Below, piece by piece: positions 32,551-49,520 of a DNA stretch of 55,320 nucleotides; the stretch's first letter is position 1; each line of letters begins with the position of its first letter. A program made the position numbers and the translations under genes. The notes below the pieces were generated by a model. It made no database searches. It saw nothing but the letters and a program-made list of their open reading frames with translations, and was not told where the DNA came from. This stretch comes from Verrucomicrobiota bacterium (GTDB lineage Bacteria > Verrucomicrobiota > Verrucomicrobiia > Limisphaerales > CANJXF01): NCBI GenBank assembly GCA_038214755.1, contig JBBQRQ010000024.1:1-55320 (forward strand). The letters are read 5' to 3'.

Positions 32551-35500
32551 TTAATTTGCACGCACCGGAATCTGCTTCAGTAATTCTTCGTGCGATGGAA
32601 CTTTCGGAAGTTGCTTCGTTGAATCTGGATCGGCTGCCGCGCGCAATAAATTCACCGCGAATTGTTGCGCAACGGGATCAACAGAAACCGAGGCCTCCAG
32701 ATCGAGATCGCAAATCCAGAGGCGTCCTTTGCCCAGCGGAATTTCAAACAGCACCGTTCGATATTGTTCGGGCACTTTGTCGGCGGAAATATAACTGTGC
32801 GCCGGAATGAACCGGATCAATTCGCGCGCTGACGAACCCCTCTTGAGCCGGTGCGACGCATTGGCCACGAACACGCGCCAGTCGTTGGTGCGTCCCCACC
32901 ATTTCAAATCCATGGGCGCAAGTTTTTCGGCGAGCTTCGTTCGGGCGCACGGAGAAAAATCTGCGAATTCGCCGGGCGCATTTTTTCCATCGAGAATTTC
33001 GGATGAAAACATCGCGGTGAATTTTTCTCCCGGTGAAAACACAATCGCGGTCGCGCCACCTTCGATGGCCGCGCGCACTGCGCTGTCTTTTTCCAGTCCA
33101 GTCAACTCATCTTTGAGACCAAGCAAAATGACTCGCGCAGTGGCGGGTTCTGCTTGCGAGGAAAACTGCGCGTTCGTTTTCAAAAAGCGACCCAGTTCCG
33201 GGCCGATGCTGCGGGTGAAAACGGGAGCGTCAATTTTTATTGGAGACGCACTTGGGAGAATTTCGACGTAATCCGTCGAGCGGCTGATTTCTTTTTCGCC
33301 TTTTAACAGACGTAGTTGAAGCAAAAGTTCCTGACGAGCTGAGGCGGGCGGCAATTTAATTTTTGTGACAAGCCGGTGCGTGGAAAAATAAGGAAGCATC
33401 GTGACGCGTCCGAGTTTTTCAGAACTGATTTTCTTTCCGCTGGAACGATCCAGAAAATTTAGCTCCACCTCCAAGTCGGAAAAATCGCGACAATCCTCGT
33501 CGTCGTTCGTGATGAACACGGCGGTATCAAGTTCTTCATTCGGAAAAAATCGGCGGCGTCCAGTTTCCAGAGCGAGACCGATAGGCGAAAACGCTTCGCG
33601 CATCGCCGCGAGAACGGAATAAGGTTTCACGGTGGCCGCGTCGTAGCTGTGGGAGAACCAGCACTCTGTTGCGAACAACATGAAACCCGCGGTGCGATCT
33701 CCGCGTTCGTAGCGAAGACGTTCCGCCCAGCGCTTCGTCACCGCGCGATAATGTTCGAGAAACCATTTTGGATCGTTGCCGCGATACGCGAGATTTCCAA
33801 TCCACGCTTGCGGCGTGAGCAAGTCGCGCGTGTACCGGAACACCGGCAAGCCAGTATCAAGATCAGGATAACCGGTGGACATTTCCTGGCCGATGAGCGG
33901 TCGAGTGCCCCCGTTGTTCTTCGCTTCTTTTTCAAACTTCGCGTCCGTGATGAACGAAGATGCGGAGTACCAATTATTGTAGCGGTGAATGTCGTCCGCA
34001 TCACCGTCGTCGAGGTTGTTCGGCTGAAAAAGTTCTTTGTAAACTTCCGGCTCCCGCGCGTATTCCGAAGAACAAATTACCGGTCGCGTGGGATCGACTT
34101 CGCGCGTTTGCTTCACCACGTCGGACAACTGTTTCAGCTTCTCCAGATTTTTAGAATCTTTCAGCGTCATCTCGTTGCCCACCGTGTAAATAAAAACGGT
34201 CGGATGATTGCGCGCGCGCTTCACTACGTCTTCGTTCTCCATGAGCCAATGCGCAAAAAGTTCCGGGGGTGTCGCGCCGATTTTTCCAGCGAGCGCCCAC
34301 GGACGAATTCCTTCGAGGCTCACGCCCAAACCGATTTCGTCAGCGGCGTCAAGCCACGCTTCATTCCACGGCGTCGCGTGAGTGCGCGTGACACGAATAT
34401 TTCCGTCGTGGAGAAATTGAATCAACTTGTGCGCAAGCTTTGGATCAAATGAATTTTTTCCGTAAGGCAAATGATTCGCGCCGCGCAGCCAATACGGTTT
34501 GCCATTCAAGAAAAATTTATTTCCGCGCGCCTCGAAAGTGCGAAAGCCGACGTTGTGCGTCCACGAATCCAAAACTGCGCCTGCCTCAGATTCAAGCGTG
34601 ACGTCGAGGCAATACAGATTTGGTTCAGCAGGCGTCCAGAGTTTTGGTTTTACATTGCGGAGTTTGAGTGTGTGGGAATTCGAGTTTGCGTTGATTTGAA
34701 TTTTCTCCGCCGGAATTTCTGCGAAGACTTTTCCAGTTTTTAAATCTGTCCATTTTGCTTTGAGCCGGAGCGCGGCTGTGTGCGGAGCACCAGCCGCAGC
34801 GGGTTCGACTGGCTTTGGCGTCTCCGGGTTTTCCAACGCGCTGCGGCTGGTCGAGGACGACACAACCGCGTTCCGTTCGAGCAGCCGCGCTTCGACACGC
34901 ACTTCCGCGCCGTCGAGTGATGGCACGAACCACACGTCGTCCAATTTCGCCGCGCCGCGCACGACGAGTTTCACCGGCTGCCAGATGCCGTGCAAATCGT
35001 AGGCGCGATTGTCAGCGTTGGGTGAAAGCGGGCCGAACATTCCTTTGCTCATGCTGCGAACTTTCGACGCGGTGAGATTGACGGTCACGGCTTCGCCCAT
35101 TGTCAGCGATGACGGCGGAATTTTTTCCATTGAGACAAAAACCGCGAGCAGGTTTTCTCCAACTTTCAAATGAGGTGTGAGGTCGTAGCTGAACCGGCTA
35201 AACATTCCTTGGTGTTCGCCGACCAATTTTCCGTTGCAAAAAGTTTTGCTCACCATCGCGACGCCGTCGAACTCGATGGAAATATTTTCCCCGGACGGAA
35301 TCGTCGGCAAATCCAGACGCAAATAATACCAGCCGTCCTCGGCGCGGTCGGTGTCGAAGCCGAGTTTTTTTAATCGGTTCGTTTCGTATTTCTTAAAATC
35401 TTCCGAGTCATCGAGCCACCACTGAATGCGATTGAGCAACTGCGGAACGGGAACCGGCACGCAATTGTTTTCGTCGGCGGAGTTTTGCGGATTTTGATTC

Positions 35501-35658
35501 GCGGCAATGGAGTAGCTCGGTTGGTAAAGCCAAATACCATTGAGAGAAAAAGTTTTCCCTGGAGACATGTCACTCTTGCCAAGAGAAATTTTTCCGTCCT
35601 CGACGGCGATTGCGTTGACGGCGAGAAAAAGCAGGGAGTTTAGAATAATTTTTTTCAT
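32551..35658 (-). CDS. Secreted glycoside hydrolase family 2
   Basis: SLNGIW, IEFDGV, HQGMFSRF, GIWQPV, LWTPAEPNLY, GFRT, FFLNGKP..LRGANH, RNHP..GNE, IGQE. Start ATG35658. Confidence 0.9.
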   Translation of the reverse strand: MKKIILNSLLFLAVNAIAVEDGKISLGKSDMSPGKTFSLNGIWLYQPSYSIAANQNPQNSADENNCVPVPVPQLLNRIQWWLDDSEDFKKYETNRLKKLGFDTDRAEDGWYYLRLDLPTIPSGENISIEFDGVAMVSKTFCNGKLVGEHQGMFSRFSYDLTPHLKVGENLLAVFVSMEKIPPSSLTMGEAVTVNLTASKVRSMSKGMFGPLSPNADNRAYDLHGIWQPVKLVVRGAAKLDDVWFVPSLDGAEVRVEARLLERNAVVSSSTSRSALENPETPKPVEPAAAGAPHTAALRLKAKWTDLKTGKVFAEIPAEKIQINANSNSHTLKLRNVKPKLWTPAEPNLYCLDVTLESEAGAVLDSWTHNVGFRTFEARGNKFFLNGKPYWLRGANHLPYGKNSFDPKLAHKLIQFLHDGNIRVTRTHATPWNEAWLDAADEIGLGVSLEGIRPWALAGKIGATPPELFAHWLMENEDVVKRARNHPTVFIYTVGNEMTLKDSKNLEKLKQLSDVVKQTREVDPTRPVICSSEYAREPEVYKELFQPNNLDDGDADDIHRYNNWYSASSFITDAKFEKEAKNNGGTRPLIGQEMSTGYPDLDTGLPVFRYTRDLLTPQAWIGNLAYRGNDPKWFLEHYRAVTKRWAERLRYERGDRTAGFMLFATECWFSHSYDAATVKPYSVLAAMREAFSPIGLALETGRRRFFPNEELDTAVFITNDDEDCRDFSDLEVELNFLDRSSGKKISSEKLGRVTMLPYFSTHRLVTKIKLPPASARQELLLQLRLLKGEKEISRSTDYVEILPSASPIKIDAPVFTRSIGPELGRFLKTNAQFSSQAEPATARVILLGLKDELTGLEKDSAVRAAIEGGATAIVFSPGEKFTAMFSSEILDGKNAPGEFADFSPCARTKLAEKLAPMDLKWWGRTNDWRVFVANASHRLKRGSSARELIRFIPAHSYISADKVPEQYRTVLFEIPLGKGRLWICDLDLEASVSVDPVAQQFAVNLLRAAADPDSTKQLPKVPSHEELLKQIPVRAN
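34766..34875. repeat. REP-like inverted doublet inserted in frame in the GH2 gene
   Basis: CGGAGCGCGGCTGTGTGCGGAGCACCAGCCGCAGCG ... CGCTGCGGCTGGTCGAGGACGACACAACCGCGTTCCG, encoding RNAVVSSSTSRSA...PAAAGAPHTAALR. Confidence 0.85.
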
Positions 35659-35683
35659 GGAATTATTTTTCAAGCCGGAACTG

Positions 35684-35848: not shown

Positions 35849-35860
35849 TTCCTTGCATTG

Positions 35861-37252
35861 TTACTTCGCTTCAAGATTTGCGGGCTGGAGTCGCGGGACG
35901 AGCAAATGAATCACGAGCAACGCGACCAGATAAGCCGATCCGGCAATCATGAAAATCAATTTGTAACTTCCCGTCGCCTGCAAAATTGCGCCCACCACCA
36001 GCGAAATAAACATCCCTCCAATCGCGCCCGCCATTCCCCCAATGCCCACGACGGAACCGACGGCTTTGCGCGGGAACATGTCGGAAGTCAGCGTAAATAA
36101 ATTGGCCGACCAACCTTGATGCGCCGCCGCCGCCACGCCGATCATTCCAACCGCGAGCCAGAGATGCGAGACGTTGGCTGCGAACATCACGGGCAACACG
36201 CACACGGCGCAAATCAGCATCGTCATTTTCCGCGCGCGATTTGGCGTCCAACCGCGTTTGATCAATGACGACGAAAGCCAGCCGCCGCCAATGCTGCCGA
36301 CATCCGCCAGAAGATAAATCGCAATCAGCGGCGGCCCCATCGAACTGACCGTGACTTGAATGCCATGTTTCTTGCTAAGAAAATCGGGGACCCAAAATAA
36401 ATAGAGCCACCAGGCTGGATCGGTCAGAAATTTTCCCAGAGCGAACGCCCAGGTTTGCCGGTAGGTGAGAAGCTTGAACCAGGAGACGCGCGCAGGCGGA
36501 TCAGACGGGTCGCTTTGAATGTAAGCCAGCTCGGAAGGTTTTAGCCGTGGATGATTTTGCGGAGGATAATAAATCGCGAGCCAACAAATCAGCCAGAGGA
36601 AGCCGAGCAATCCCGTCGCGATGAACGCCGCTTTCCATCCCCAGATTCCGACGATCCACGGCACGAGCAACGGCGTGGCCAGCGCGCCGACGTTTGTGCC
36701 GGAATTAAAAATGCCGGTCGCCAACGCGCGTTCTTTTTTCGGAAACCATTCCGCGACCGTTTTGATCGAGGCTGGGAAATTTCCTGCTTCGCCCAGTCCC
36801 AAAAGAAAGCGCGCGATGGCGAAACCTGCTGCTGCCCCGGCCAGCGTCACGATGGAAAATCCAGTCTTCGCATCGAGGTTCAAAACGGGAAGGCGCAATC
36901 CCGCCACCAAATCGGATCCAGCGTGGGCCATCGCGGCAATGCTCCACAACACGATGGCCATCGCAAAACCGATTCGCGTTCCGACGCGATCCATGAATCG
37001 TCCTGCAAAAATAAAACCGATGGCATACGCGAGTTGAAAACTAAAAATGATGGATCCGTAAATTCGTTCATCGCCCCAGCCGAATTCTTTTTGCAGCGCC
37101 GGTTTAAGAATGCCAATGACCTGGCGATCGATGTAATTGATCGTCGCCGCGAAAAACAGCAGCGCGCAAATGGTCCAACGAAAGTAACCGACACGCGATC
37201 CGGCCGGCGTCTGATGTGGAACGGTGGTGGAAGTTTGCGGTGACAGTGGCAT
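35861..37252 (-). CDS. exuT: MFS hexuronate transporter (ExuT family)
   Basis: RWTICALLFFAATINYIDRQ, GEAGNFPA.IK.VAEWFP.KERA.ATG.FNSG, AAAHQGWSAN. Confidence 0.85.
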   Translation of the reverse strand: MPLSPQTSTTVPHQTPAGSRVGYFRWTICALLFFAATINYIDRQVIGILKPALQKEFGWGDERIYGSIIFSFQLAYAIGFIFAGRFMDRVGTRIGFAMAIVLWSIAAMAHAGSDLVAGLRLPVLNLDAKTGFSIVTLAGAAAGFAIARFLLGLGEAGNFPASIKTVAEWFPKKERALATGIFNSGTNVGALATPLLVPWIVGIWGWKAAFIATGLLGFLWLICWLAIYYPPQNHPRLKPSELAYIQSDPSDPPARVSWFKLLTYRQTWAFALGKFLTDPAWWLYLFWVPDFLSKKHGIQVTVSSMGPPLIAIYLLADVGSIGGGWLSSSLIKRGWTPNRARKMTMLICAVCVLPVMFAANVSHLWLAVGMIGVAAAAHQGWSANLFTLTSDMFPRKAVGSVVGIGGMAGAIGGMFISLVVGAILQATGSYKLIFMIAGSAYLVALLVIHLLVPRLQPANLEAK

Positions 37253-37314
37253 CAAAGATTTTTAGCCGGTCAACGAATTGTGGTCACGATTTTTTTGCGA
37301 GCGCCGCGAGGGAT

Positions 37315-37634: not shown

Positions 37635-40610
37635 TTACGGTAGTTTTGTGGCATCTCCCCCGCGCGGCAAATCTTTGTCCACCAAGCCGACTCGGCGCGC
37701 GGCCGAATCTTTCGCGAGCTTCCACCAGCGCAAAAGCAGATCCATTCCTGCATGTTCGACCGCCAGCGAATCTTCGCCGCTCACGATCAGGGTGGAATCA
37801 ATTTGTGTGACCGAGCCGAACTTTGCTGTGGTTAATTTATTTTGAAGTTTGGCGATCGCCTCGTTTGACTTTGGCGTGCCGACAAAAATTAAATTCTGGT
37901 CTGATCGCTTTGGCAAATCCTTGAATTCAATAGCTTCGATGGGCTGGCCGCTGGCGCTTTCCAAAGTGCTCGCGATAGCCCACGCGGTTTCGACTTCCAA
38001 GACCGGAGCGTCGGTTCCGTAAATCACCGTGATCGGTTTGGTGAAGTCGAATTTCAATTCCGCAGATTTACTTTCCGTTTCCAGTTTCGGCGCGCCAGCC
38101 AGACGCGCTTCAATCCAGCCGTAACACAATTGTCCGTCACTCGTTTCGAGTCGTAAAAAGTTGTGATAAAAACCGGGGGTCGCGTCAGACGTTTTCAGCG
38201 TTACAGATAAAGAAAAACTTTCTCCCGGCTCCAAGTTCCGTTTACCAAAATCTTTCATCGTCGCTGCGAGGTTGCCGGGCGATTCCAGAGTCGCGGTGAA
38301 AACCAGTTTATGTCCGCTCGTGTTTTTAATTTTAACCACGGCTTTTCCTTCTCCCCGTTTGTCAAGATTGACGACGACTTGTGGAACTTCGAGGACTTGC
38401 AACGCATCATCGGCTGCGCTGTATTTTTTGATCAGCTTCATCAACTCCAACGCTTCCAGCTTGGGCCGGCGGCTGAGATGGATGAGTTCGTAATGGCGCA
38501 AAATATTTCCGCGACCGGACCGCAGATTCGGAGCGAGCGTTTCGTTGAATTGAAATTGATACATCTCAGGAATGGCTCGCGTGGCGAGCATGTTGTCGAA
38601 AATTGCTGGATAAATTTTCGCGCGCGCTTCCGGCGTCAGGCGCGTCAATTGACGCCAATTGTATTCGGTGACGACCGGCGGCTTGCCGATCTTGCTGGAA
38701 AAACTTCCGAGAGCCAGAGCATAGCCGCGCGCCGTCGGAATGGCGTCAAGCGAATCAACGTAGGAATGAAAACCAACGCGGTCGAATGGCACGTTGAGTT
38801 TTTCAAGGCGGTTGAATATGCCGGTGTTGTTGTAGCCGGTGAGATGGACGCGGACGTGCGGCGCGGTTTTTTTCACGGCAGCGTAAGTTTGTTTCCATTG
38901 CGGCGGACGGTCGAGCGGAATGCCCCAGATGAGAATTTCATTTTCGATTTCCACCGTGTCGATGACGTCGCCATAACGCTGGAGCAATTCAACGATGGCG
39001 GCATCGGACGTGTAGATGTCCAGGAGCGCCATGAGTTTTAGATGGCGCAGTTCGGCAAAAATAAAATCCAAATAGTCCTGTCGAATATTTTTCGGAATGG
39101 GAGCGAGCAATTCGAGGTGATGCAAGCGGATGAATTGAAATCCCATGGCTTTGGCGATGCGCAAATCGCGGCGGATGTCATCGGCAAATTCCCGCCACCG
39201 CAAAACTGTGTCGCCAGCGAGCGGCCAGAACGCGTCACGGTCCATTCCCGGAAGTTTCAGCGTGTCGAAATTTTCGCCAAAAGTGGAGTAGGGAAAATAG
39301 CTCGTGCCGAACTTGACCGATTTTACCCCGAAAGAAATTGCGACGCCGTTGGAAGTTTTTCGTTGCTCGCTGTAGCTCGTGTAGCCGACAAACATCTGGT
39401 CGGTCTCTGTGTCGTTCAACATTTCCTTGGAGTCTGTTTGAAAAGTGGGGCGGGCATCCTGCCTGCCTGACGGACTTCCAGTCCGCGAACCCGAAACTGG
39501 GGCAAGATGCCCCCGAGTGGCAGGCTGGAAGCCTGCCCCACTAGAGTTCTCGCTCAACACGAGACGCGAAGAAAAGTTCAGGCCTTCGCCGCGAGCCGGG
39601 AGCGTGTTATCCGCGACGCGATCGCGATACGACTTGATATTCGAGCGCGCGATTTCCGTGATGGAATAGAATTTTTCTCCGGTGGTCTGAACCTCTTGTC
39701 CGAGTTGCGGAAGATTTGCTCCTTCGTAACGCGGCTGCTTGAAAGTGTTCTTCGTCGAGTTGTCCAGCACTGTGAATGACGGCGCAAAATCATTCAACCA
39801 CGCCACGGTCACGCCATTGCCGAACGCGCTTCGCACCCAGTCCACGCCGCGTTGCGTGAATTGATGTCGCCCTTCGCCAGCGCGAAATGGTGACCAGCCT
39901 TTTTCGTCCAGCGAGGAAACGCGATTGTCGTAACAGAGCGTGCGCGATTTCACGCGCGGCTGTTCCCAACGGCACACCACCGCCGCGTAAACTTTCGCGC
40001 GCTCGTCTGCCGACTCATTCGTGATCTGCGCATTCACATCGAGAAATCCTTCGGCGTAAGCGAGCAATTCGATTTTAAAATTCAATCCGGCTTTGACCGT
40101 CTCCGCCGTCCACGTTTTGAAAACCGGCCCGTCCGCCGTTTTCCGAAACGCGAGCGATAGAGCGTTAAATGCGGTGTCGAAATTTTCGTGAGCGGCGGGT
40201 TGCGTTTCATCGTGAGACGCGGCTTTCGCTGGCTTCAGAAAAATGTCCCAACTCAGGCGGCCCAATTCTTTGCCGGAAAAAATCAGCGCAACGCCATTCG
40301 ACGCTGGCTTGACCGTCAGCGCGATTTGTTCTGCGGCAGTTCCCGCTTTGATGGGAATTTCCTTTTTCGCTCCAGGCGCAACATCGGCAATCAGCACCGC
40401 GTTGCTTCCAAGCAATTGCACGCCGCGTCCATCCGCCGTCCATTGGCCTGCGCCAAGCTCTAGTCCGCGAACGGTGATCGGCATATTGATTCGGAACGGT
40501 TGATTGTTTTCGAGTCGCAGGACGGGGCGCGTTTCCGCCAGAGATGGAAATGTTCCAATCGCCGCGCAGAGAAAAAGGCTGGAACTACAAACAAGGATTG
40601 ATGCTCTCAT
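37635..40610 (-). CDS. Secreted 991-aa putative clan GH-A glycoside hydrolase
   Basis: Signal peptide, DLRIAKAMGFQFIRLHH, EIENE (acid/base-like), GFHSY, KPPVVTEY (nucleophile-like). Confidence 0.7.
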   Translation of the reverse strand: MRASILVCSSSLFLCAAIGTFPSLAETRPVLRLENNQPFRINMPITVRGLELGAGQWTADGRGVQLLGSNAVLIADVAPGAKKEIPIKAGTAAEQIALTVKPASNGVALIFSGKELGRLSWDIFLKPAKAASHDETQPAAHENFDTAFNALSLAFRKTADGPVFKTWTAETVKAGLNFKIELLAYAEGFLDVNAQITNESADERAKVYAAVVCRWEQPRVKSRTLCYDNRVSSLDEKGWSPFRAGEGRHQFTQRGVDWVRSAFGNGVTVAWLNDFAPSFTVLDNSTKNTFKQPRYEGANLPQLGQEVQTTGEKFYSITEIARSNIKSYRDRVADNTLPARGEGLNFSSRLVLSENSSGAGFQPATRGHLAPVSGSRTGSPSGRQDARPTFQTDSKEMLNDTETDQMFVGYTSYSEQRKTSNGVAISFGVKSVKFGTSYFPYSTFGENFDTLKLPGMDRDAFWPLAGDTVLRWREFADDIRRDLRIAKAMGFQFIRLHHLELLAPIPKNIRQDYLDFIFAELRHLKLMALLDIYTSDAAIVELLQRYGDVIDTVEIENEILIWGIPLDRPPQWKQTYAAVKKTAPHVRVHLTGYNNTGIFNRLEKLNVPFDRVGFHSYVDSLDAIPTARGYALALGSFSSKIGKPPVVTEYNWRQLTRLTPEARAKIYPAIFDNMLATRAIPEMYQFQFNETLAPNLRSGRGNILRHYELIHLSRRPKLEALELMKLIKKYSAADDALQVLEVPQVVVNLDKRGEGKAVVKIKNTSGHKLVFTATLESPGNLAATMKDFGKRNLEPGESFSLSVTLKTSDATPGFYHNFLRLETSDGQLCYGWIEARLAGAPKLETESKSAELKFDFTKPITVIYGTDAPVLEVETAWAIASTLESASGQPIEAIEFKDLPKRSDQNLIFVGTPKSNEAIAKLQNKLTTAKFGSVTQIDSTLIVSGEDSLAVEHAGMDLLLRWWKLAKDSAARRVGLVDKDLPRGGDATKLP
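39444..39542. repeat. 99-bp four-hairpin REP-like element inserted in frame in the 991-aa gene
   Basis: Reverse complement AGTGGGGCAGGCTTCCAGCCTGCC...GCCCCACT matches the intergenic copy at 37496-37591. It encodes SGAGFQPATRGHLAP...GRQDARPT. Confidence 0.9.
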
Positions 40611-40661
40611 ATTCTATTCAAATGTAAGAAAATTTAATTCGATTGCGCAAATTTTTTTGAA

Positions 40662-40721
40662 ACCGCAGATGGACAGATAAGCGCCGACAAGAGGAAGAAC
40701 ATCTGCGTCTATCTGCGGTTA
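40662..40721. repeat. ACCGCAGAT...ATCTGCGGT inverted repeat
   Basis: ACCGCAGATGGACAGAT ... ATCTGCGTCTATCTGCGGT downstream of the LacI gene. Confidence 0.65.
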
Positions 40722-40784
40722 AAGCTCCTTTGCTTGCGGCCCTGACGCGCTGTTCATTTCCAAAAATTTTCAGCGCGAGCGACA

Positions 40785-41831
40785 TCACGAATTGGGGGCA
40801 GGGCCAGTGGATTGGCGGATGATTAACTCCTCGGGGATAAGAATCGTTTTGGGTTCGGGAGACGTCTCCTGGCGCTGCTGTAACACCAGACCAACGGAAG
40901 CCTTTGCCACGCGATCAGCTAAAAGGCCAAAGGTAGTCAAAGCCGGTCGCCAGTATTTCCCCATGGTTGAATCACCAAAACCCACCACCGAGAAATCGTC
41001 AGGACAACGTCGCCCCGCGTCGCCGGCCGCAGCGATGAGTCCCAGCGCAATCGCGTCATTGATGCAAATGGCCGCGGTGACTTTAGGGTTGCGCTGAACC
41101 AGACGAGGGAAACCGCTGACCCCGCCTTCAAATCCGAATTCGGTTACGTCCACCACCAGGGATTCAACATAGTTCAGTCCGGCCTCTTGCAGGGCGCGGC
41201 GGTATCCCGCGAGTTTACATAGCGTTGTCTTCGGCCGCGTTAGTGTGTCGGAAATCAACCCGATGCAACCATGGCCCAGTTTAATCAGGTGCCTTGTTCC
41301 TTCGAGAAAAGCACTCTCGCGATCCGGCGTCACCGTGGAAATGCCTGCGGGACTGTCCGGCAACAAATCCACCACCGGCACTCCCTCCGCCGCCAGTTGG
41401 ACCAAATAACTTTCCCGCATCGCCGGAGAATCCCACAACACCAGCAACCCGCCGACGTTGTGCAATAAATGTCGTTTCAGAAATGCCTCGGCTTCCGCAT
41501 CGTTGTCGGCGACGTGGACGGTTAACTCGAATCCTTGAGCGATCGCGGCCCGGCTGATGGCCATGGCCGTGGCCGAGTGCGACGTGGCGAGGTCCCAGGT
41601 GACGATCAACAAAATCACCTGGTTCGTGTAGCCGCGTTGAAGCGCGCGACCGATGGGATTGGATTTGTAAGCGAGACGATCAGCAGCATCGCGCACCCGC
41701 TGTTTCGTGGTGTGAGAGATGCGTTGCGCATGCTCATTGTCGTTGAGCACGTAGGAGACGGTAGAGAGAGAGACGTTGGCTTCGTGCGCAACATCCTTCA
41801 GGGTCGCTCGAGGTTTTGTGGATCGTGTCAC
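40785..41831 (-). CDS. LacI-family transcriptional regulator
   Basis: TLKDVAHEANVSLSTVSYVLN HTH, HLIKLGH..IG, NDAIALG, PDDFSVVGFGD, PALTT, LIIRQST. The start is taken as GTG41831. Confidence 0.92.
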   Translation of the reverse strand: MTRSTKPRATLKDVAHEANVSLSTVSYVLNDNEHAQRISHTTKQRVRDAADRLAYKSNPIGRALQRGYTNQVILLIVTWDLATSHSATAMAISRAAIAQGFELTVHVADNDAEAEAFLKRHLLHNVGGLLVLWDSPAMRESYLVQLAAEGVPVVDLLPDSPAGISTVTPDRESAFLEGTRHLIKLGHGCIGLISDTLTRPKTTLCKLAGYRRALQEAGLNYVESLVVDVTEFGFEGGVSGFPRLVQRNPKVTAAICINDAIALGLIAAAGDAGRRCPDDFSVVGFGDSTMGKYWRPALTTFGLLADRVAKASVGLVLQQRQETSPEPKTILIPEELIIRQSTGPAPNS

Positions 41832-41993
41832 GGTAAAGAATCGGCCCGCATCTTTACCGCACGTTGAGTGGATGTCGAGGGTAACTGCTGGGAGCAATCG
41901 TTTGTGGGTGTAATTAAAAGTGGGTGAGGTTGGTGTTCTTTAAGAAACCACTTGACCCCTCGTCGGCTATGTTGGAGTCTCCCTAAGTGTCCT

Positions 41994-42009
41994 AGTGAAA
42001 CGTTTAACT
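41994..42009. promoter_or_regulatory. Candidate LacI operator
   Basis: Near-palindrome AGTGAAACGTTTAACT with a central CG, 17 bp before ATG42027 in the divergent intergenic region; TTGACC at 41952. Confidence 0.6.
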
Positions 42010-42026
42010 TTTTGCGTGGATTATTT

Positions 42027-45000
42027 ATGAAACGATTATTCTCACTATTCGCCGTCGGTATCGCTTTGGCTGCCTTCACGGGCTTTGCCCAATTTACTCC
42101 GGGTCGCGCTGTTGTGTTGCAATGCACCAACATCTCCCTGGGTGGTGGCGGCAAGCTTGTTGAATATAACAGGGCGGGGGGCACATCCTACGAAGTGGCT
42201 CTCCCCTACGGAACAACTACCGCCGACACCAATTCGATTGTGTTTGGTTTACCGAGCAGTAACCAACAATTAAGTCACAACACCTCCTTGTCGGCCGATG
42301 GCGCATTCATAGTCATTCCAGGTTACGGCAATGCTGTCGTCGCAGGCACGGTTGATACCGCTGCTGGAACCACCAGCCCGCGAGTTGTCGCTACGGTGAA
42401 ATACGATGGGACTTACAGGCGACCCTTCACTTCGAGTACGATATTTTCCAGCCAGGCTTTTCGGAGTGCGACCTCTGATGGATTTGGTAATTTTTGGGGA
42501 AACCAGAGCGGTCCCGCGACCTATCTGAACACAGGGACAGCTATCGGCGTCGGTGCCTGCCGCGCGATGGCCATTGCCAACGGGAATATCTACGTCACAA
42601 AAGCTGCCGGCCTCATTGAAATAATTGGCACTCCAATGGTCCTCTCTGCGGAGACCACGATAATCGCCAGTGCGTTAATCGGAACTGGCGCGAGCCCTGC
42701 CGGTTTTGCTATCCCGCCCAACGTAGGTATCAACTCCATCGCTTATATGGCTGATTACAACGGTACGACCTCCGCCGTTGGACACTTCCATTGGAATGGC
42801 ACTGCATGGGTCTTCGATTATAACTTGGTTTTAGCGGGCGGTGAGAAGCCCCAAAATATAGCGGTTGATTATAGTGGCGCCAACCCGTTTGTTTATGTCG
42901 TCAATACCCCGGGAGCGGGTAATCACCTGTATGGCTTCAATGACACCAATTCATCTGCTATCCAAATCAACATTGCAACCGCACCTGCCAGTACCGTCTT
43001 CCGCGGTGTGGTAGTGTCTCCCACGCAACCAGCCCTTCCTGCTTTTACCGTCCATCCTGCCCACACGACGAACGCTGTGGGAGCAACCGCCGTATTCGGC
43101 CCGGTGTCTGCCACCAATGCCAATCCTAATGGTTACACGTGGAAAAAAGGTAGCACGACGTTGAGCGATGGACCGACCGGCAACGGTTCAACGATCAGTG
43201 GGGCCAGCACCCCGACTTTGACCATCGCGGGTATCTCGGGAGCAGATGCCGGTTCTTATTTCGCGGTGGCATCCAACAATGGCGGCAGCGTTACCAGCAA
43301 CCCGGCCATCCTTGCCTTGCCGGGTTCATCCATTACTACTCCATTGATGAGTCGCACTAACCTTGCGGGTACCACCGCAACGTTTCATGTCGTATCCAGC
43401 GCATCACCACCTTTAACCTACGCCTGGCTGCAAGGCACTACGCCGCTTATCAATGGCCCCAGTCCTTCTGGCTCAGGAGCGACCATCTCCGGGGCGACCA
43501 CGGATACCTTGACCATTACGGGAGTGCAAGATGCCGATGCGGGAACTTACAAGGTTACTGTTACTGACGGTTCATCCGCGCAAGAAAGTTCCGTCGCTGG
43601 TCTGACCGTCCTGGATCCGCCTATAATCACCTCTCCGCCCGCCAACCAAAGCAAGGTGGTCGGAACCACTGCCAACTTTTCTGTCACGGCTACCGGCGGT
43701 GCGTTATCTTATCAATGGTTCAAAGGTGTGAATGCGCTTACCAATGGTCCTACTGGTTTGGGTTCGACCATCTCCGGCGCGCAATCTTCCAATCTCTCCA
43801 TTGCCAACGTCCAGCTTGGTGATGCAGGTTCTTACTCTGTCACGGTGACGAATCTGGCCGGCACGGCCAATGGCGGTCCCGCCTCCTTGACGATAGGTCA
43901 GGCGCCTACTGTGGGAGGGATAGCCAGTTCCACAAATGTGATCGGCTCGAATGCCATTTTTTCGGCTACCGTAACAGGTGGCAGCACTCCCTTTAGCTAC
44001 ACATGGAGTCACAATGGAACCCCTCTCGTCAATGATGGCTCCCACATTTTTGGAGCGGATACCGCAACCCTTGGTATCACCAATATCGTCAGTGATGATA
44101 GGCGGCTCTATTCGCTGACGGTCAGTAACGCATTTGGCAGTGCCGTCGCTTCGGCTCTGCTCTATGTCATCATCGATACTAACCATCCGAACGACGTTCC
44201 CAATTTGATTATCTACGAGCCGTTCAACTATCCCATCGGGCCTACTACGGCGGTCGGCTTTTATTCGTGGGAAAATCTCATCAGTATCTATAACCGAGTT
44301 ACGGGACAACCAGCCTATTGGTTCAATACTGGCGGCGGCCTGAATTCCGGCGTCCTGCCTAATGACTTATACCAATACTCAGGCGTCAGCCGGAATCCGC
44401 CGGGACTTTATCCCTGGCCGGGAATTGATTGTAGCGGTGACAAAATGTGGACCTTCGCCAGCGGAGGAAACAATAACCACTTGAAGTTCGGCGGAGTCAC
44501 GAATGGGTCTGCTTACTTCTCCTGTATTATTCACGCCGATCAAGGCTCGGCTCTGAATAACGGGACATTGGACGTGCTCGCTGGATTTACCAGTGGTGAC
44601 TCGGATGCTGCCGGTGGCAACGCCAATACGTGGAACTACAAGTTGTGTGTTAAGGTTGCTGGCACTGGAGGAGATTCCTACCAGTTGGGCGTATTCAAAG
44701 GCAACGGAGCTACCATCACCGCATCATCAACCAACGGCCAATTCGCGCCGCAAAATTTGCTTCGCGGACAAATCCATTTTGTCGTTGGCTCTTACAAGAT
44801 TAATTCCGGCGGCACATCCACCAATGATGATGTTGTCTCATTGTGGATTGATCCACCAACATCCGCCTTCGGTGCATCGGAGGCAGGTCTTCCTACCCCT
44901 GATGCGGGCGGCTCGATCACCAACTGGAATAACAACGCCCCCATCACCGAGTTTGGTATCCGCTCCGGCGCAAATTTGGGACCTTTCTCAAAACGCCTGG

Positions 45001-45314
45001 CGGATTTGCGCATCGGCAAGACCTGGGCATCAGTGACAGGACCTTACTTCCCGAAATTGAAACAGACCTATTCTTCACCCAGCGTCACTCTCTCCTGGCC
45101 GGCCAAAGACTCCTTTGGCATCGGCCCGGAGTTCACCAGCGGTCATTACGGCTATCAATTGAAAACTGCTTCCGACGTGGCGGGGCCGTATGTGTACGAT
45201 GACAATTCCCAATCAATGAACGGCACCAACATCGTCGTGACCGAGACGCCCGCTTCGACCCAATTCTGGCGGCTGGTTTATCCAGCGCGCTCTGGGACTC
45301 CCGGAACTTATTAA
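42027..45314 (+). CDS. Secreted protein with an N-terminal propeller-like domain, four Ig-like repeats and a C-terminal FWRL domain
   Basis: Signal MKRLFSLFAVGIALAAFTGFA. Four repeats of Y.W..G...L.[DN]G....I[SF]GA....L.I......D.G.Y.V.V.N. Ends VTLSWP..YQL..FWRL. Confidence 0.85.
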   Translation: MKRLFSLFAVGIALAAFTGFAQFTPGRAVVLQCTNISLGGGGKLVEYNRAGGTSYEVALPYGTTTADTNSIVFGLPSSNQQLSHNTSLSADGAFIVIPGYGNAVVAGTVDTAAGTTSPRVVATVKYDGTYRRPFTSSTIFSSQAFRSATSDGFGNFWGNQSGPATYLNTGTAIGVGACRAMAIANGNIYVTKAAGLIEIIGTPMVLSAETTIIASALIGTGASPAGFAIPPNVGINSIAYMADYNGTTSAVGHFHWNGTAWVFDYNLVLAGGEKPQNIAVDYSGANPFVYVVNTPGAGNHLYGFNDTNSSAIQINIATAPASTVFRGVVVSPTQPALPAFTVHPAHTTNAVGATAVFGPVSATNANPNGYTWKKGSTTLSDGPTGNGSTISGASTPTLTIAGISGADAGSYFAVASNNGGSVTSNPAILALPGSSITTPLMSRTNLAGTTATFHVVSSASPPLTYAWLQGTTPLINGPSPSGSGATISGATTDTLTITGVQDADAGTYKVTVTDGSSAQESSVAGLTVLDPPIITSPPANQSKVVGTTANFSVTATGGALSYQWFKGVNALTNGPTGLGSTISGAQSSNLSIANVQLGDAGSYSVTVTNLAGTANGGPASLTIGQAPTVGGIASSTNVIGSNAIFSATVTGGSTPFSYTWSHNGTPLVNDGSHIFGADTATLGITNIVSDDRRLYSLTVSNAFGSAVASALLYVIIDTNHPNDVPNLIIYEPFNYPIGPTTAVGFYSWENLISIYNRVTGQPAYWFNTGGGLNSGVLPNDLYQYSGVSRNPPGLYPWPGIDCSGDKMWTFASGGNNNHLKFGGVTNGSAYFSCIIHADQGSALNNGTLDVLAGFTSGDSDAAGGNANTWNYKLCVKVAGTGGDSYQLGVFKGNGATITASSTNGQFAPQNLLRGQIHFVVGSYKINSGGTSTNDDVVSLWIDPPTSAFGASEAGLPTPDAGGSITNWNNNAPITEFGIRSGANLGPFSKRLADLRIGKTWASVTGPYFPKLKQTYSSPSVTLSWPAKDSFGIGPEFTSGHYGYQLKTASDVAGPYVYDDNSQSMNGTNIVVTETPASTQFWRLVYPARSGTPGTY

Positions 45315-45467
45315 ACGAAGTCATCGGATTTGAATGATGAGTTCAATGCCTCACGCGGGAAAGTAAGATGGCGCTCCGTGCCTCAAAGGGCGTGCGTTCA
45401 ACCGGGATGCGGCAGGGCATGTCTTGCCGGGCGGGTGCGCCCTCGTTATAAAATTATCAAACAATTT

Positions 45468-46523
45468 ATGAGACCTGAACAATGGGACATTTTTAAAAAA
45501 GCGGCGCGGCGCGAAAAATTGGACAAGGTGCCAATGGCGATGATCGTGGATAGCCCGTGGATACCCGGCCATCTCGGCATCAAGCACATGGATTTTTATT
45601 TGGATCCCGAAGTGTGGTTTCAATCGCATCTCAAAATTCACCGGGAATTTCCAGACGTTATCTGGGTTCCAGGTTGGTGGATGGAATACGGCATGGCCGC
45701 TGAACCCTCGGCACTCGGTTCAAAAATAAAATTTTGGACCGACAACACGCCGAGCGAATACCACACGCTTTTTCACATCGAGGACATCGAGAAATTTCCT
45801 GAATACGAAGTGGAGAACGACGCCTTCATGGCGATGACGCTGCATCGTATTCGTATGCAGAAACAACGCGTGTTCGATGCCGGTTACGTCATGCCGTTCG
45901 TCACATCGCGCGGGCCTATGTGTACCGCCGGTTTCGTTCGCGGCACCACCGACCTGATGATTGATCTCGTGGAAAAACCGGAGTGGGCGCACAAACTTCT
46001 CGATCTTTCCACGCGCCTGATTATCGACTGGCTCAAAGCCCAGCACAAAGCGATTGGGAATTGTGTCGAAGGGATTTTTATTCTCGACGACATCGTTGGT
46101 TTCGTAAACGAAGATCATTACATGGAATTTTGCCATCCCTATTTGAAGCGCATTTGCGACGCCTTTCCGAAAGATTGGGTGAAACTTTATCACAACGACG
46201 CGGAAGTTCAGGCTTGCCTCGATCATCTGCCGGATTGCGGTTTCAATGTGTTGAACTGGGGGAAACAAACCGACTACGCCGAAGTAAAGGATCGCGTGGG
46301 TGACCGCATGTGCCTCATGGGAAATGTGAACCCGCTCGAAGTCGGTGTGCGTGGCACGCCCGAAGAAGTTCGCGAAGCTACGTTGGACGTTTTGGAAAAA
46401 AGTGGCGGTGAAGGAATTATTCTTTCCGTCGGCGGCGGCACAAGCCCAGGAATGCCGGGACAAAATATTCAAGCGATGCTGGATGCGCTGGCAGAATTTA
46501 ACGGCAGACGCGTCCCAGCTTAG
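45468..46523 (+). CDS. Uroporphyrinogen decarboxylase / MtaA-CmuA superfamily protein (putative corrinoid methyltransferase)
   Basis: GPMCTA..VRG, DLVEKPEWAHKLL, FCHPYLKRI, CLMGNVNP, GTPEEV, ILSVG. Immediately upstream of a corrinoid protein. Confidence 0.85.
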   Translation: MRPEQWDIFKKAARREKLDKVPMAMIVDSPWIPGHLGIKHMDFYLDPEVWFQSHLKIHREFPDVIWVPGWWMEYGMAAEPSALGSKIKFWTDNTPSEYHTLFHIEDIEKFPEYEVENDAFMAMTLHRIRMQKQRVFDAGYVMPFVTSRGPMCTAGFVRGTTDLMIDLVEKPEWAHKLLDLSTRLIIDWLKAQHKAIGNCVEGIFILDDIVGFVNEDHYMEFCHPYLKRICDAFPKDWVKLYHNDAEVQACLDHLPDCGFNVLNWGKQTDYAEVKDRVGDRMCLMGNVNPLEVGVRGTPEEVREATLDVLEKSGGEGIILSVGGGTSPGMPGQNIQAMLDALAEFNGRRVPA

Positions 46524-46542
46524 TTGAATTTATTTGTTGAAA

Positions 46543-46705
46543 TGAAACGCTCTCCCTCACCCCGGCCCTCTCCCCAAAGGAGAGGGAGAAAATATTCCAG
46601 CGCTGGAAAATGTTCATCGCTTGGTGAAATACAGAGCGCGATGATTTTGGTCCCCTCTCCTCGGGGGAGAGGGTTAGGGTGAGGGCGAGCAACCTTCTAA
46701 CTGAA
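46543..46705. repeat. CCCTCACCC..CCCTCTCCC palindromic element, copy B
   Basis: Inverted copy of 35684-35848. Confidence 0.9.
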
Positions 46706-46737
46706 ATAATTACCGAGTAAGAAAAAAAGGATTCCCC

Positions 46738-47721
46738 ATGCCAGACTACGCGTTAATGAACCAGTGCATTTACGAAGGTAAAGCCAAGGAAGTGGAACAG
46801 ATGACCATTGCCGCCCTCGCCGAAGGCCGGAGCGTCAAAGAAGTTTTGACCGAAGGACTCATCGCTGGAATGAGCGTCGTCGGCGAGGACTTCAAATACA
46901 ACATCCTCTACGTGCCAGAAGTGCTCATCGCCGCGCGTGCGATGAAGGCCGGCATGGGAGTGTTGAAACCATTGCTGTCCGCAAAAGATTCTGACGTTCA
47001 ACCCGCCGGAGTTCTTGTCATGGGAACGGTGCGCGGCGACTTGCATGACATCGGAAAAAATCTCGTCTGCATGATGGCGGAAGGCGCGGGTTTTCAGGTG
47101 TATGACATCGGCGTTGATCAAAGCATCGAAAAATTTCTCGCCGCCTACGAACTGCACAAACCGAGCATCATCGGCATGAGCGCGTTGCTCACCACGACGA
47201 TGACTTACATGAAAACCGTCATCGATGGCTTTGAAGAAAAAGGTCTCGGTCACATCAAGATGGCCATCGGTGGCGCGCCCATCAGCCAGATGTATGCGGA
47301 CGAAATTGGCGCCGATGGTTACGGCGCGGATGCTTCGAGCGCCGTGGATTTATTTCTCCATTTTGTCGGCAAAGGTCTTCCTCCCTCATTCAAAACTAAA
47401 TTGGAAGCGGCCGCTCCTGCAATCGCTGAGCGCGCTGCCGTGGTCCAAACGCGCGACCTGAACGCGAAATCAAAATTTCAAATTCTCTATTGGCAGGACA
47501 TTCCATCAGAAGTGAAAGCATGGGATGATTTTGACGAAATTAAAGTCAGCTTGCCCGTGCGATTTGCGGAATTGATTGATGAGTCGGCGCAAAAACAAGG
47601 TTTCATTTCGGGCGACGCTTACATGAAGCATCTGCGTTGGGGCGAGGAAACGGAACGTCCCGGCTCGCCCGAGGAAGTTGTCGAAGCCGTTCGCAAAGAA
47701 ATGGAAGCAAAATTTCTGTAA
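46738..47721 (+). CDS. Methyltransferase-cognate corrinoid (B12-binding) protein fused to a C-terminal 'virulence factor'-type domain
   Basis: Cap domain GLIAGMSVVGEDF..YVPEVL, GDLHDIGKNLV (DxHxxG), MSALLTTT, IGGAP, IGADGY. An extra ILYWQDIPSEV..F..LID..A...G domain follows. Confidence 0.9.
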   Translation: MPDYALMNQCIYEGKAKEVEQMTIAALAEGRSVKEVLTEGLIAGMSVVGEDFKYNILYVPEVLIAARAMKAGMGVLKPLLSAKDSDVQPAGVLVMGTVRGDLHDIGKNLVCMMAEGAGFQVYDIGVDQSIEKFLAAYELHKPSIIGMSALLTTTMTYMKTVIDGFEEKGLGHIKMAIGGAPISQMYADEIGADGYGADASSAVDLFLHFVGKGLPPSFKTKLEAAAPAIAERAAVVQTRDLNAKSKFQILYWQDIPSEVKAWDDFDEIKVSLPVRFAELIDESAQKQGFISGDAYMKHLRWGEETERPGSPEEVVEAVRKEMEAKFL

Positions 47722-47750
47722 GCGGTTCGTGTCCGGTTCCATCATGCCGC

Positions 47751-47826
47751 TTCTCATTAAAACCCCGTTAACGCTTTAGCCGGGTGTTGAGTTAGACGGT
47801 GAAGCTCCGACCCTTTCAACCGTTTC
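47751..47826. repeat. Degenerate palindromic element related to 28205-28276
   Basis: TTCTCATTAA..CTTTAGCCGGGTG...TTTCAACCGTTTC resembles the reverse complement of the 28.2-kb element. Confidence 0.45.
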
Positions 47827-47904
47827 GCGCGCAGCAAAGTTTTCTGCCTGCAAAAATTTATCGTCACTCCTCCCGCCTCGGTGTAATTTGAACTCACTCG
47901 AGTC

Positions 47905-48792
47905 ATGGAAGTTTCTGAAACATTTTACGACCTGGTCGAAACCACTTGTCGCGATCTTTACATTAAGTCGCTCAAGGAAATTCCGCCGGACATCGTGGCC
48001 GCGATCCGGCGCGCCGCCGCCACCGAAACCAAGGAAGTCGCGAAGAGAATTTTTTCTCACTACATCCAATCCATCGAACTGGGCCGCGACAAAAACATGA
48101 TGGTCTGCCAGGACACCGGCATCCCGATTTATTGGGTGGACATCGGTGGAAATCTTCGGCTCGACGGCGCGAAATTGAACGACGCGATTATTCGCGGAAC
48201 GGAACGGGCCACGCGCGAACATCCGTTGCGCTCCAGCATCGTCTCCCCGCTCACACGAGAAAATCGCCAGACCAGCACTGGGGAAAGAATCCCCGTCATC
48301 AAATATGATTTCGTCCGCGATTCCGATTGCCTCGATATTTTGTTCATCCCGAAAGGTTCCGGCTCCGAAAATATGTCGTTCCTGAAAATGTTGGTTCCCG
48401 CCGATGGAATTAACGGCATCAAAAAATTTGTTCTCGAACACGTCGTCGGCGCTGGCGCCAAACCTTGTCCGCCGACCATTGTCGGCGTCGGCATCGGCGG
48501 CTCTTCTGACTTGTGCATGGCGCTCGCCAAGAAAGCGACGACCCGCGTGCTCGGTTCAAAAAATCCGGACCCGCAAATCGCCGCGCTCGAGGAAGAACTG
48601 TTTGAGGCCATCAATCAAACTGGAATTGGTCCGCAAGGTCTGGGCGGGAACACCACCGCGCTCGCCGTTCACATCGAATCTGCCTGGACGCACATCACCT
48701 GCAATCCCGTGGCGGTGAACATGCAGTGCTGGCGCGCCGAAAGGCGTCGCGCAAAAATCTGGGCGGATGGGAAAATCGAGGAAGGTTTTTAG
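47905..48792 (+). CDS. Fe-S hydro-lyase alpha subunit (L-tartrate dehydratase / class I fumarase alpha family)
   Basis: CQDTG, PLRSSIV, PKGSGSEN, KPCPP, GIGPQGLGG, PVAVNMQCW. Confidence 0.9.
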   Translation: MEVSETFYDLVETTCRDLYIKSLKEIPPDIVAAIRRAAATETKEVAKRIFSHYIQSIELGRDKNMMVCQDTGIPIYWVDIGGNLRLDGAKLNDAIIRGTERATREHPLRSSIVSPLTRENRQTSTGERIPVIKYDFVRDSDCLDILFIPKGSGSENMSFLKMLVPADGINGIKKFVLEHVVGAGAKPCPPTIVGVGIGGSSDLCMALAKKATTRVLGSKNPDPQIAALEEELFEAINQTGIGPQGLGGNTTALAVHIESAWTHITCNPVAVNMQCWRAERRRAKIWADGKIEEGF

Positions 48793-48833
48793 AAGTTCTT
48801 GACGGAAAAAGACGACGTATTACATTTCGTATT

Positions 48834-49079
48834 ATGTCAGACATTTTAGCTAAAGGTAGAACCGTCCGGTTTAGTAAAAAACTAGACAGGTCCCTCACGG
48901 CGGAGGCGGCGCGACAGAATGTAAGCGTGAGTGATTTGGTGCGGCGCGCGGCCGAAAGCGCCCTCCACGCCAGCACTGAATGCGCCGGTGATTGGTGCTT
49001 GGGTTTGGCGCAACGCAAGTCGCCGCGGAAAAAAACCGATCCCGAACTCATCGCGGCATACGATCGTCGGCACAAATGA
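48834..49079 (+). CDS. Ribbon-helix-helix antitoxin
   Basis: TVRFSKKLDRSL..EA..QNVSVSDLVRRA. Its TGA overlaps the toxin ATG. Upstream is TTGACG-16 bp-TACATT-7 nt-ATG with CGTATTA repeated twice. Confidence 0.75.
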   Translation: MSDILAKGRTVRFSKKLDRSLTAEAARQNVSVSDLVRRAAESALHASTECAGDWCLGLAQRKSPRKKTDPELIAAYDRRHK

Positions 49080-49483: not shown

Positions 49484-49520
49484 CGTTCGCGCCAATCCCG
49501 CACAACAGGTCTCAATTGTT

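Follow-up and report, generated by a model that had tools for sequence, protein, structure and literature searches.

Does the pair of genes for a UroD-fold protein and a corrinoid protein, which stands at the end of a long run of sugar genes, serve to remove methyl groups from plant sugars, and if so, from which of them? The question is raised by the window, i.e., the whole stretch of 55,320 nucleotides analysed here, which is contig C24 (JBBQRQ010000024.1) of the Verrucomicrobiota bacterium assembly GCA_038214755.1, a 5.1-Mb genome that is 97% complete and whose relatives are titled Limisphaerales or Verrucomicrobiota (G, L and C numbers below stand for genomes, loci and contigs). A sequence-only reading had joined three of its genes in a candidate module for cobalamin-dependent sugar O-demethylation:

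45468..46523, plus strand: UroD-fold protein of 351 aa, proposed substrate:corrinoid methyltransferase (MT1); PF01208, 148.8 bits
46738..47721, plus strand: corrinoid protein (cap and B12-binding domain) fused to a PF13769 domain, 327 aa; PF02310 + PF02607
47905..48792, plus strand: alpha subunit of an iron-sulfur (Fe-S) hydro-lyase, 295 aa; PF05681; not part of the module

As that reading had it, all three genes lie on the plus strand, 3′ of an immunoglobulin-like (Ig) gene divergent from a LacI gene, and the corrinoid protein bears DxHxxG; its assignment of the hydro-lyase as the third member of the module was lost, since the gene was found in 0 of 80 related loci. The remaining two, judging from sequence comparison, appear to be a conserved pair that forms the front end of a B12-dependent methyl-removal system, and the control it appears to share with a sugar-acid transporter and glycosidases suggests that it probably strips methyl from a plant-derived sugar acid. 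We incline, with slightly better than even confidence, to a corrinoid O-demethylase whose substrate would be an O-methyl uronate, probably 4-O-methyl-glucuronate (MeGlcA) or its aldonate, which in this genome would come from a non-xylan glycan.

The UroD-fold gene is the sole PF01208 match in the genome. The AlphaFold2 model of its product (pLDDT 95.5) had UroD and MtaA (4AY7) as top Foldseek matches, with a TM-score of about 0.8 to 4AY7/4AY8. In a profile alignment, H242-N-D244 falls on the H-I-C of MtaA and S320-V-G-G-G on its A-P-G-C-G, which bears out the earlier observation that HND and SVGGG replace the H-x-C...C zinc ligands; the common fold and the His of H-x-C are shared with MtaA/MtbA, whereas both zinc cysteines are absent. 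The protein scores below the family cut-offs of MtaA/CmuA and HemE alike, so that it is, as had been suspected, neither a typical MtaA nor an obvious HemE. The MtaA/MtbA identity was rejected on a TIGR01463 score of 100.6 against a cut-off of 235.4 and on the missing zinc site. The catalytic roles in HemE belong to an Arg pair, Asp86, Tyr164 and His339 (human numbering); non-matching residues occupy the positions of the Arg pair (M-R-Q-A-G-R), Asp86, Tyr164 and His339 in the profile alignment, and the TIGR01464 score is 66 bits against a cut-off of 303, so HemE was rejected as well. Ferrochelatase (PF00762), a partner in the classical heme pathway, had no match in the 97% complete genome.

To see what accompanies this protein, we compared the best 80 of 149 loci with UroD-like orthologs (77-95% identity to the window protein), which are spread over at least five phyla (Verrucomicrobiota, Ignavibacteriota/Bacteroidota, Acidobacteriota, Planctomycetota and KSB1); contig ends interrupt many of these loci and affect the partner counts. 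In 76 of the 80, a corrinoid gene follows the UroD gene at a distance of 3.5 kb or less, and in three of the four loci without it a contig edge comes soon after the UroD gene. The corrinoid protein of the window carries the complete motif set, DxHxxG (D101-L-H103-D-I-G106), SxLxT (at S148) and GGA (G178-G179-A180). Its C-terminal PF13769 domain, overlooked in the first note on this DNA, occurs as a fusion in 43 loci (the window counted) and on a gene apart in 24; in 10 loci it was not seen. Fifteen residues of the UroD-fold protein (D28, W31, W70, W71, E73, E79, R148, D207, D208, H242, N243, D244, N263, W264 and N286) are kept in 7/7 members of the window's clade and in at least 97% of 77 other orthologs. 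These conserved residues are located at the strand ends of the barrel and, on the basis of the model and the alignment, are read as a polar pocket for a sugar acid together with a His/Asp site that would activate the ether.

Further partners recur as well: PF13769 in 66 of the 80 loci, a 420-aa gene in 58, a 108-aa gene in 57, the activator RACo in 57, a homocysteine methyltransferase in 26, a pterin-binding protein (MT2, the second methyltransferase) in 20, a MetF-DUF5981 fusion in 19, an amidohydrolase in 18 and a PurU-like gene in 10. RACo and the 420-aa and 108-aa genes occur together in 53 loci, MT2 or the homocysteine methyltransferase in 40, and one locus (L001) contains the entire module set. 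The sequence-only reading had found neither an MT2 nor a RACE/RamA activator in the window; this holds for the window, and the genome search it had proposed located both on other contigs:

C55:28038-29018: pterin-binding MT2; PF00809, E 7.6e-12
C117:4825-6633: RACo activator

Contig C55 also bears MetF and the amidohydrolase; the stand-alone homocysteine methyltransferase and the 420-aa and 108-aa genes are on C117. Among 151 sampled genomes of the order, RACo was found in 28 of the 29 genomes with a UroD-like match at E<=1e-60 vs. 22 of the 122 others. In three genomes of the same genus the UroD ortholog, RACo and most of the sugar run are missing together, and two of them retain a transporter homolog. 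Corrinoid protein motifs, an encoded MT2 and an encoded activator are among the features that define a three-component corrinoid demethylase, and by this analysis of gene content the set is the parts list of such a demethylase with a methionine branch.

The same parts invite another interpretation, namely a split methionine synthase with reactivation genes, in which the UroD-fold protein would either act in a sugar pathway or methylate a thiol as an MT2. The parts of the split enzyme, as given in the available portion of PMC12478193, do correspond to the homocysteine methyltransferase, the pterin-binding protein, the corrinoid protein and RACo, and relatives of the UroD-fold protein at 33-51% identity adjoin sugar oxidoreductases; of 15 such neighbourhoods, 14 have no corrinoid gene. 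We nevertheless regard it as decidedly improbable: an intact MetH of 1626 aa is encoded at C29:2211-7091 (L163), the UroD-corrinoid adjacency (76/80) exceeds that of the methionine-synthase parts (26 and 20 of 80), the thiol-activating H-x-C...C set is absent, and genomes with distant UroD-like relatives nearly all have RACo. The 420-aa gene, taken by eye for a MetH reactivation domain, found no support for this in Pfam, PDB or a profile comparison with the genome's own MetH. In C117:2951-4650 (L082), this gene, with two cysteine clusters, and the 108-aa gene, whose product is 63-90% conserved, belong to no known family. Between its cap and its B12-binding domain, the intact MetH contains an insertion of about 340 aa that gave a weak match to a P-loop family (PF06414). 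No cobalamin or S-adenosylmethionine (SAM) riboswitch was found in the 13 sources scanned; CobS had no match in this genome, so its B12 is probably borrowed.

Which substrate the system acts on is suggested by the glycan genes around it. GH115 and GH67 (GH, glycoside hydrolase family) release 4-O-methyl-glucuronate from xylan. A GH115, GH67, CE15 (carbohydrate esterase family 15) or UxuA-like gene is present in 27 of the 80 loci, across four phyla. Given copy number and genome size, GH115/GH67 would be expected inside 0.38 of 50 loci and was found inside 8, and a UxuA-like gene inside 10 vs. 0.16 expected, the loci of both comparisons being partly kin. Glycosidase gene content was searched in the 50 carrier genomes and in 29 further ones: GH115 is present in 39 of the 50, GH67 in 29 and either in 42, and GH115 occurs in 25 of the 29 further carriers vs. 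20 of the 151 order genomes.

The xylan linkage bears on two other explanations. C4 of glucuronate is C3 of the aldonate, the position at which dehydratases eliminate. A methoxy group on C3 of the aldonate could leave as methanol by elimination, and methanol capture is for this reason the main rival: a dehydratase would eliminate the methoxy group, and the UroD-fold protein would be a new methanol:corrinoid methyltransferase. Enterobacter asburiae is said to release methanol from methylglucuronoxylose, a report for which no supporting paper was found. The UxuA-like gene in 14 of the 80 loci, pectin-type GH28 in 8, a His/Asp-rich site that could hold a Lewis-acid metal, and the fact that a single small substrate would fit two glycan front ends with an unchanged pocket all fit methanol. 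We consider it unlikely: the numerous tryptophans, arginines and acidic residues that are invariant at the ends of the strands suggest that the ligand is polar and larger, this genome has no UxuA-like gene, and the linked glycans are of the methyl-ether rather than the methyl-ester type. Moreover, the known methanol MT1 belongs to a different family. It is MtaB, which the legend to Fig. 1 of bioRxiv 10.1101/2023.07.31.551370 names.

CE15 esterases cut lignin-xylan esters, and they are found in 11 of the 80 loci. This would suit an aryl O-demethylase of the MtvB/OdmB type, acting on lignin-derived methoxy aromatics freed with xylan, and the characterised UroD-fold O-demethylases that the accessible part of PMC13222342 describes all act on methoxy aromatics. 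Such a role is very improbable to us, since no aromatic ring-cleavage or aromatic-acid transport family was seen among the recurrent neighbours annotated, and the system is linked instead to a sugar-type LacI site and a sugar-acid transporter.

That linkage is found in the branch to which the window belongs. This genome has no GH115, GH67, UxuA-like or UxaC match. Eight of the 50 carriers lack both GH115 and GH67, namely the seven closest by identity and one planctomycete on another branch; six of the eight form a clade with the window's UroD-fold protein (SH-aLRT 97) in a quick version of the tree, in which the placement of L002 is unsure. The sugar genes of the window that belong to this branch are as follows:

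32551..35673, minus strand: GH2 glycosidase of an uncharacterised subgroup, the marker of carriers without alpha-glucuronidase
35861..37255, minus strand: ACS-family sugar-acid transporter (ExuT/DgoT-like), the proposed importer of the methylated acid; TIGR00893, 232.9 bits, below the cut-off of 395
37635..40610, minus strand: 991-aa protein of a TIM-barrel glycosidase-like fold; no Pfam family, no Pfam or PDB sequence match
40785..41897, minus strand: LacI-family regulator, the proposed controller of the sugar cassette and the methyltransferase pair; PF00356 + PF13377
41995..42008, no strand: candidate LacI-type operator, a palindrome in the space that separates the divergent LacI and Ig genes, 18 bp ahead of the start codon (ATG, 42027)
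41952..45314, plus strand: secreted Ig-domain protein between the operator and the UroD gene, a variable passenger
5535..7793, minus strand: GH140/DUF4038-like glycosidase; PF13204, 225 bits
20481..30182, minus strand: run of RhaM-like, TIM-barrel isomerase/dehydratase-like, SDR, GH42-like, 2-hydroxyacid dehydrogenase, HpcH aldolase, RhaT and aldehyde dehydrogenase genes

An ortholog of the window's GH2 (58-78% identity) is present in exactly the eight carriers without GH115 and GH67, the other 42 yielding one 34% homolog only, and the GH140-like protein is present in 7 of the eight and 0 of the 42. In L001 the GH2 gene is directly upstream of the UroD gene. Within the order sample, the GH2 ortholog occurs only in this genome and in G022, where the GH2, LacI, 991-aa and acid transporter genes run into a UroD-like gene of 35% identity, followed by SDR and UxuA-like genes; the transporter is directly upstream of that UroD-like gene, and the genome also has GH67. 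Orthologs of LacI (67-76% identity) adjoin GH2/exuT-like genes in G022, G152, G160 and G163. The best reading of these comparisons is that the window's branch swapped the xylan alpha-glucuronidases for a cassette of GH2, GH140-like protein and transporter. One of the genomes, G156 (L006), is unpublished; it supplies one operator site, one GH2, one GH140-like and one RhaT genome, and with it removed the counts become 5/6 for the operator (see below), 7 for GH2, 6 for the GH140-like protein and 2 for RhaT.

Furthermore, the operator ties the module to this cassette. A palindrome similar to that at 41995..42008 lies upstream of the transporter-GH2 run beside LacI orthologs in two genomes (G160, G163), and in G022 one stands at the start of the cassette; a pattern was built from these four sites, the window's included. 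Of the 7 alpha-glucuronidase-negative loci with upstream DNA, 6 show this pattern ahead of the UroD gene, at a distance of 53-146 bp, vs. 0 of 70 other loci, and it had no match in 1.19 Mb of these other loci; four of the six sites have a TTGAC hexamer before them. With one mismatch at most allowed, the candidate is the sole match on contig C24. Genome-wide, two exact matches equal the number in shuffled sequence, so that the single window site is weak alone and the evidence is its conservation in relatives. Among 65 upstream regions of the xylan-linked loci no shared palindrome was found upstream of the module. We suggest that LacI would bind the palindrome, and that this one operator would govern both the minus-strand sugar run and the plus-strand Ig-UroD-corrinoid run. 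No terminator-like site stands between the Ig, UroD and corrinoid genes on the plus strand, the scan of 40500-49600 for sigma-70 promoters and terminators having given nothing above shuffles. As for the passenger, an Ig-domain gene is upstream of the UroD gene in none of the seven closest loci.

The second exact match, at C1:32046, abuts the start of a prepilin-like (DUF1559-type) gene, kin in type to 30366-31169 in the window; this gene may belong to the LacI regulon.

A neutral sugar is a further rival in this branch: 3-O-methyl-rhamnose from moss or fern arabinogalactan, or 2-O-methyl-fucose or -xylose from rhamnogalacturonan II (RG-II). The sequence-only reading had attached the module to a rhamnose/uronate locus of some 40 kb with glycosidases, rhaT/rhaM and exuT. 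Of this, RhaT (above its cut-off), the RhaM-like protein, GH2 and the GH140/DUF4038-like protein stood, while ExuT is a resemblance at a sub-cut-off score, the nearest solved structure to the transporter being DgoT. The run from RhaM to the aldehyde dehydrogenase, with SDR and aldolase genes, also immediately precedes the module in L010 and L013, the GH140-like gene is directly upstream of the UroD gene in L006, L007, L010 and L013, the window's W66 and H35 differ from most orthologs, and 3-O-methyl-rhamnose is abundant in bryophyte arabinogalactan proteins according to the available text of PMC12209756. Yet rhaT, rhaM or a GH140-like gene is found in only 4 of the 80 loci, all close relatives; of the 50 carrier genomes, only 3 have a RhaT ortholog above 80% identity (L010 adds a piece at a contig edge), and none was found in G151, G152, G157 and G200, all of which have GH2. 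It is to the acid transporter that the operator links the module. In G163 a divergent AraC-type gene stands at the head of the rhaT run, and the UroD gene carries a LacI-type site of its own, an arrangement that suggests that the rhamnose branch is controlled separately. The window's protein is 84-88% identical to xylan-linked orthologs, with only seven branch-specific positions in its clade (W66 and H35 among them), and GH28, GH78 and GH127 had no match in this genome with the queries used. A neutral sugar is, in our judgement, rather unlikely. The earlier tie of corrinoid demethylation to sugar loci is supported by gene content, neighbourhoods, co-occurrence across genomes and the operator, and its rhamnose part shrinks to those four loci; on sequence evidence, the balance favours an O-methyl uronate over 3-O-methyl-rhamnose and the 2-O-methyl sugars of RG-II.

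For this O-methyl uronate we infer, as regards the chemical steps, the substrate, the residue roles, LacI binding and the glycan alike, the following course. Glycosidases would release the methylated acid and the ACS transporter would import it. The UroD-fold protein may then bind it at the mouth of the barrel, with Arg148 for the carboxylate and Trp, Asp, Glu and Asn for the ring, and His242/Asp244/Asp207/Asp208 as a metal or acid site. The methyl group would pass from the acid to Co(I) on the corrinoid protein and from there either to tetrahydrofolate (via the pterin-binding MT2, with MetF-type oxidation and, in some loci, PurU) or to homocysteine via the stand-alone homocysteine methyltransferase, and RACo would restore Co(I). 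The actual substrate might also be the 3-O-methyl aldonate made from 4-O-methyl-glucuronate. In most carriers, GH115/GH67 would supply alpha-linked 4-O-methyl-glucuronate from xylan, whereas in the window's branch the LacI-controlled cassette would serve a non-xylan glycan, e.g., arabinogalactan with beta-linked 4-O-methyl-glucuronate. Arabinogalactan fits because its side chains, as the available part of PMC6508755 describes them, end in beta-linked MeGlcA and carry rhamnose. One substrate with two sources is the simplest account.

Several observations weigh against it. The carboxylate-binding motif of GH2 beta-glucuronidases is N-x-K-G. It was not seen by eye in the window's GH2, whose alignment to solved enzymes stops before the region and whose nearest structures include galactosidases as well as glucuronidases; its acid/base N500-E501 and nucleophile E597 are invariant. 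The comparisons assigned no specificity to this GH2, nor to the 991-aa, 647-aa, 703-aa and 281-aa proteins. With UxaC, UxuA-like, GH115 and GH67 matches all missing here, no route for freed glucuronate was found. One genome (G019) has an 81% ortholog and neither GH115, GH67 nor the window-type GH2, and 16 of the 20 GH115-positive order genomes have no close UroD ortholog. The carrier genomes are related and many are incomplete, and the neighbourhood enrichment stands without an unrelated glycosidase family as control. The planctomycete locus (L080) has no operator, and neither has the window's own UroD gene, so that co-regulation here requires transcription to run on from the Ig gene. Most of the conserved residues of the pocket recur in paralogs of 33-43% identity and hence mark the chemistry, not the fine specificity; to go by the alignment, the branch-specific W66 and H35 could shift the latter. 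These UroD-like paralogs of order genomes (L122-L131, L153), with the same D/W/E/R/D-D/H-N-D residues, often adjoin Gfo/Idh/MocA oxidoreductases, sugar transporters, GH116 or SDR and UxuA-like genes, without a corrinoid gene.

Compared with what has been described, the architecture is known and the substrate class would be new. According to the accessible parts of PMC12478193, MtgBCDE of Ruegeria pomeroyi and the split methionine synthase of Phaeobacter inhibens likewise have one corrinoid protein serving pterin-binding and homocysteine methyltransferases, MetF2 and RamA, and MtgC is the best NCBIfam match of our corrinoid gene (182.6 bits, below the cut-off of 370). Unlike in MtgBCDE, the MT1 here is of the UroD fold, not of the MttB family, and the context is glycan degradation, not glycine betaine; PF06253 (MttB-family) is absent among the recurrent neighbours, the set that was searched for it. 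Unlike in both, an intact MetH and the two conserved extra genes of 420 and 108 aa, of no family, are also present. UroD-superfamily MT1 proteins combined with a corrinoid protein, a folate MT2 and an ATP-dependent activator, as proposed here, are known from MtvABC, OdmB/VdmB, MtoB and CdmBCA (chloromethane; PDB 9RUI); aryl O-demethylases exist among them and zinc need not be used, as stated in the part of PMC13222342 at hand. CdmB is a weak sequence match to our protein (E 1.4e-7). Here, unlike in these systems of anaerobes, the sequence is very distant, the predicted pocket is polar vs. the aromatic one of CdmB, the proposed substrate is a sugar ether, and the hosts are Verrucomicrobiota, Ignavibacteriota, Acidobacteriota, Planctomycetota and KSB1. 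A type 1 mlp cluster, defined in the available text of bioRxiv 10.1101/2023.07.31.551370 by at least two MtaA-like genes and no folate methyltransferase within 20 kb, was rejected, the genome having one PF01208 gene and a folate methyltransferase being within 10 kb in 20 of the 80 loci.

Methyl ethers block sugar catabolism, and the only sugar demethylase we found in print is an oxygen-dependent P450 of marine bacteria (PMC6292453, available part). It removes a monosaccharide O-methyl group beside a polysaccharide pathway, as proposed here, but oxidatively, with release of formaldehyde and from 6-O-methyl-galactose only, whereas the present system would need no oxygen and would retain the methyl group on B12. 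In the open-access literature, the scope of our search, we found no demethylation of a sugar or MeGlcA by a corrinoid system. If our proposal is true, a B12 route for 4-O-methyl-glucuronate, abundant on xylan and arabinogalactan, fills a gap in plant cell-wall turnover; it would work without oxygen and link this turnover to methionine and folate metabolism. Tentatively, and with less than even confidence, we extend it to a widespread family of UroD-fold B12 sugar O-demethylases in soil and freshwater bacteria with interchangeable glycan front ends, the 33-51% paralogs serving other methyl sugars. Through such a family, the methyl ethers of plant glycans would supply methionine and C1 units by way of B12. 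The window names testable parts (enzyme, carrier, activator, transporter, three candidate glycosidases, regulator and probable binding site), and the effector of LacI should be the substrate or product of the system.

How the hydro-lyase gene came to follow the pair can be explained by a repeat. In four close relatives metF is directly 3′ of the corrinoid gene, and in L008 a palindromic repeat stands whole between the two. In this genome the left half of such a repeat precedes the hydro-lyase gene, the right half precedes metF on C55, and an SdhB-like gene is the divergent neighbour of that metF. In two of the three same-genus genomes (G094, G028), the hydro-lyase alpha gene (94% identity) lies between SdhB-like and beta-subunit genes, without UroD or corrinoid genes. 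From these sequences, the position in the window is explained if the repeat was the site of a reciprocal rearrangement or if the assembly was joined across it. In L133/L132 (G028, G094), flavoprotein, SdhB-like and two-subunit Fe-S hydro-lyase genes are clustered, and here they are scattered over C55, C147, C45 and C24. After the hydro-lyase, 48835-49483 (plus strand) encodes a ribbon-helix-helix and then a PIN-like protein, a probable toxin-antitoxin pair.

The 991-aa protein merits a word of its own. In a Foldseek search its model (pLDDT 88) matched several families of glycosidases with low TM-scores, N557-E558 is invariant and E649 near-invariant, an N-E / E pair that resembles clan A glycosidases, and the gene accompanies GH2 in G022, G151 and G200. 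This orphan family, with 214 homologs at E<=1e-20 among 8000 scored, is possibly an unclassified glycosidase family, to judge from the model.

Between the UroD and corrinoid genes (46539-46705) and at 35684-35851 lies a dispersed palindromic repeat of about 170 bp; it gave 273 BLAST pieces on 72 contigs of this genome and occurs in congeners. Elsewhere in the window, a GHL10-like glycosidase occupies two overlapping frames on the minus strand (8326-9093 and 7790-8356, within 7790-9093), a frameshift or sequence error, next to a PIN gene (9161-9763, minus), a probable toxin-antitoxin member. A cysteinyl-tRNA synthetase fragment (11306-12175, minus, with 13280-13497) has as its last part a 218-bp copy, 88% identical, of the terminal stretch of the 572-aa gene and looks like a rearrangement relic. 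Finally, two Acido-Lenti-1 RNA matches in inverted orientation lie upstream of rhaT at 27702-27892.

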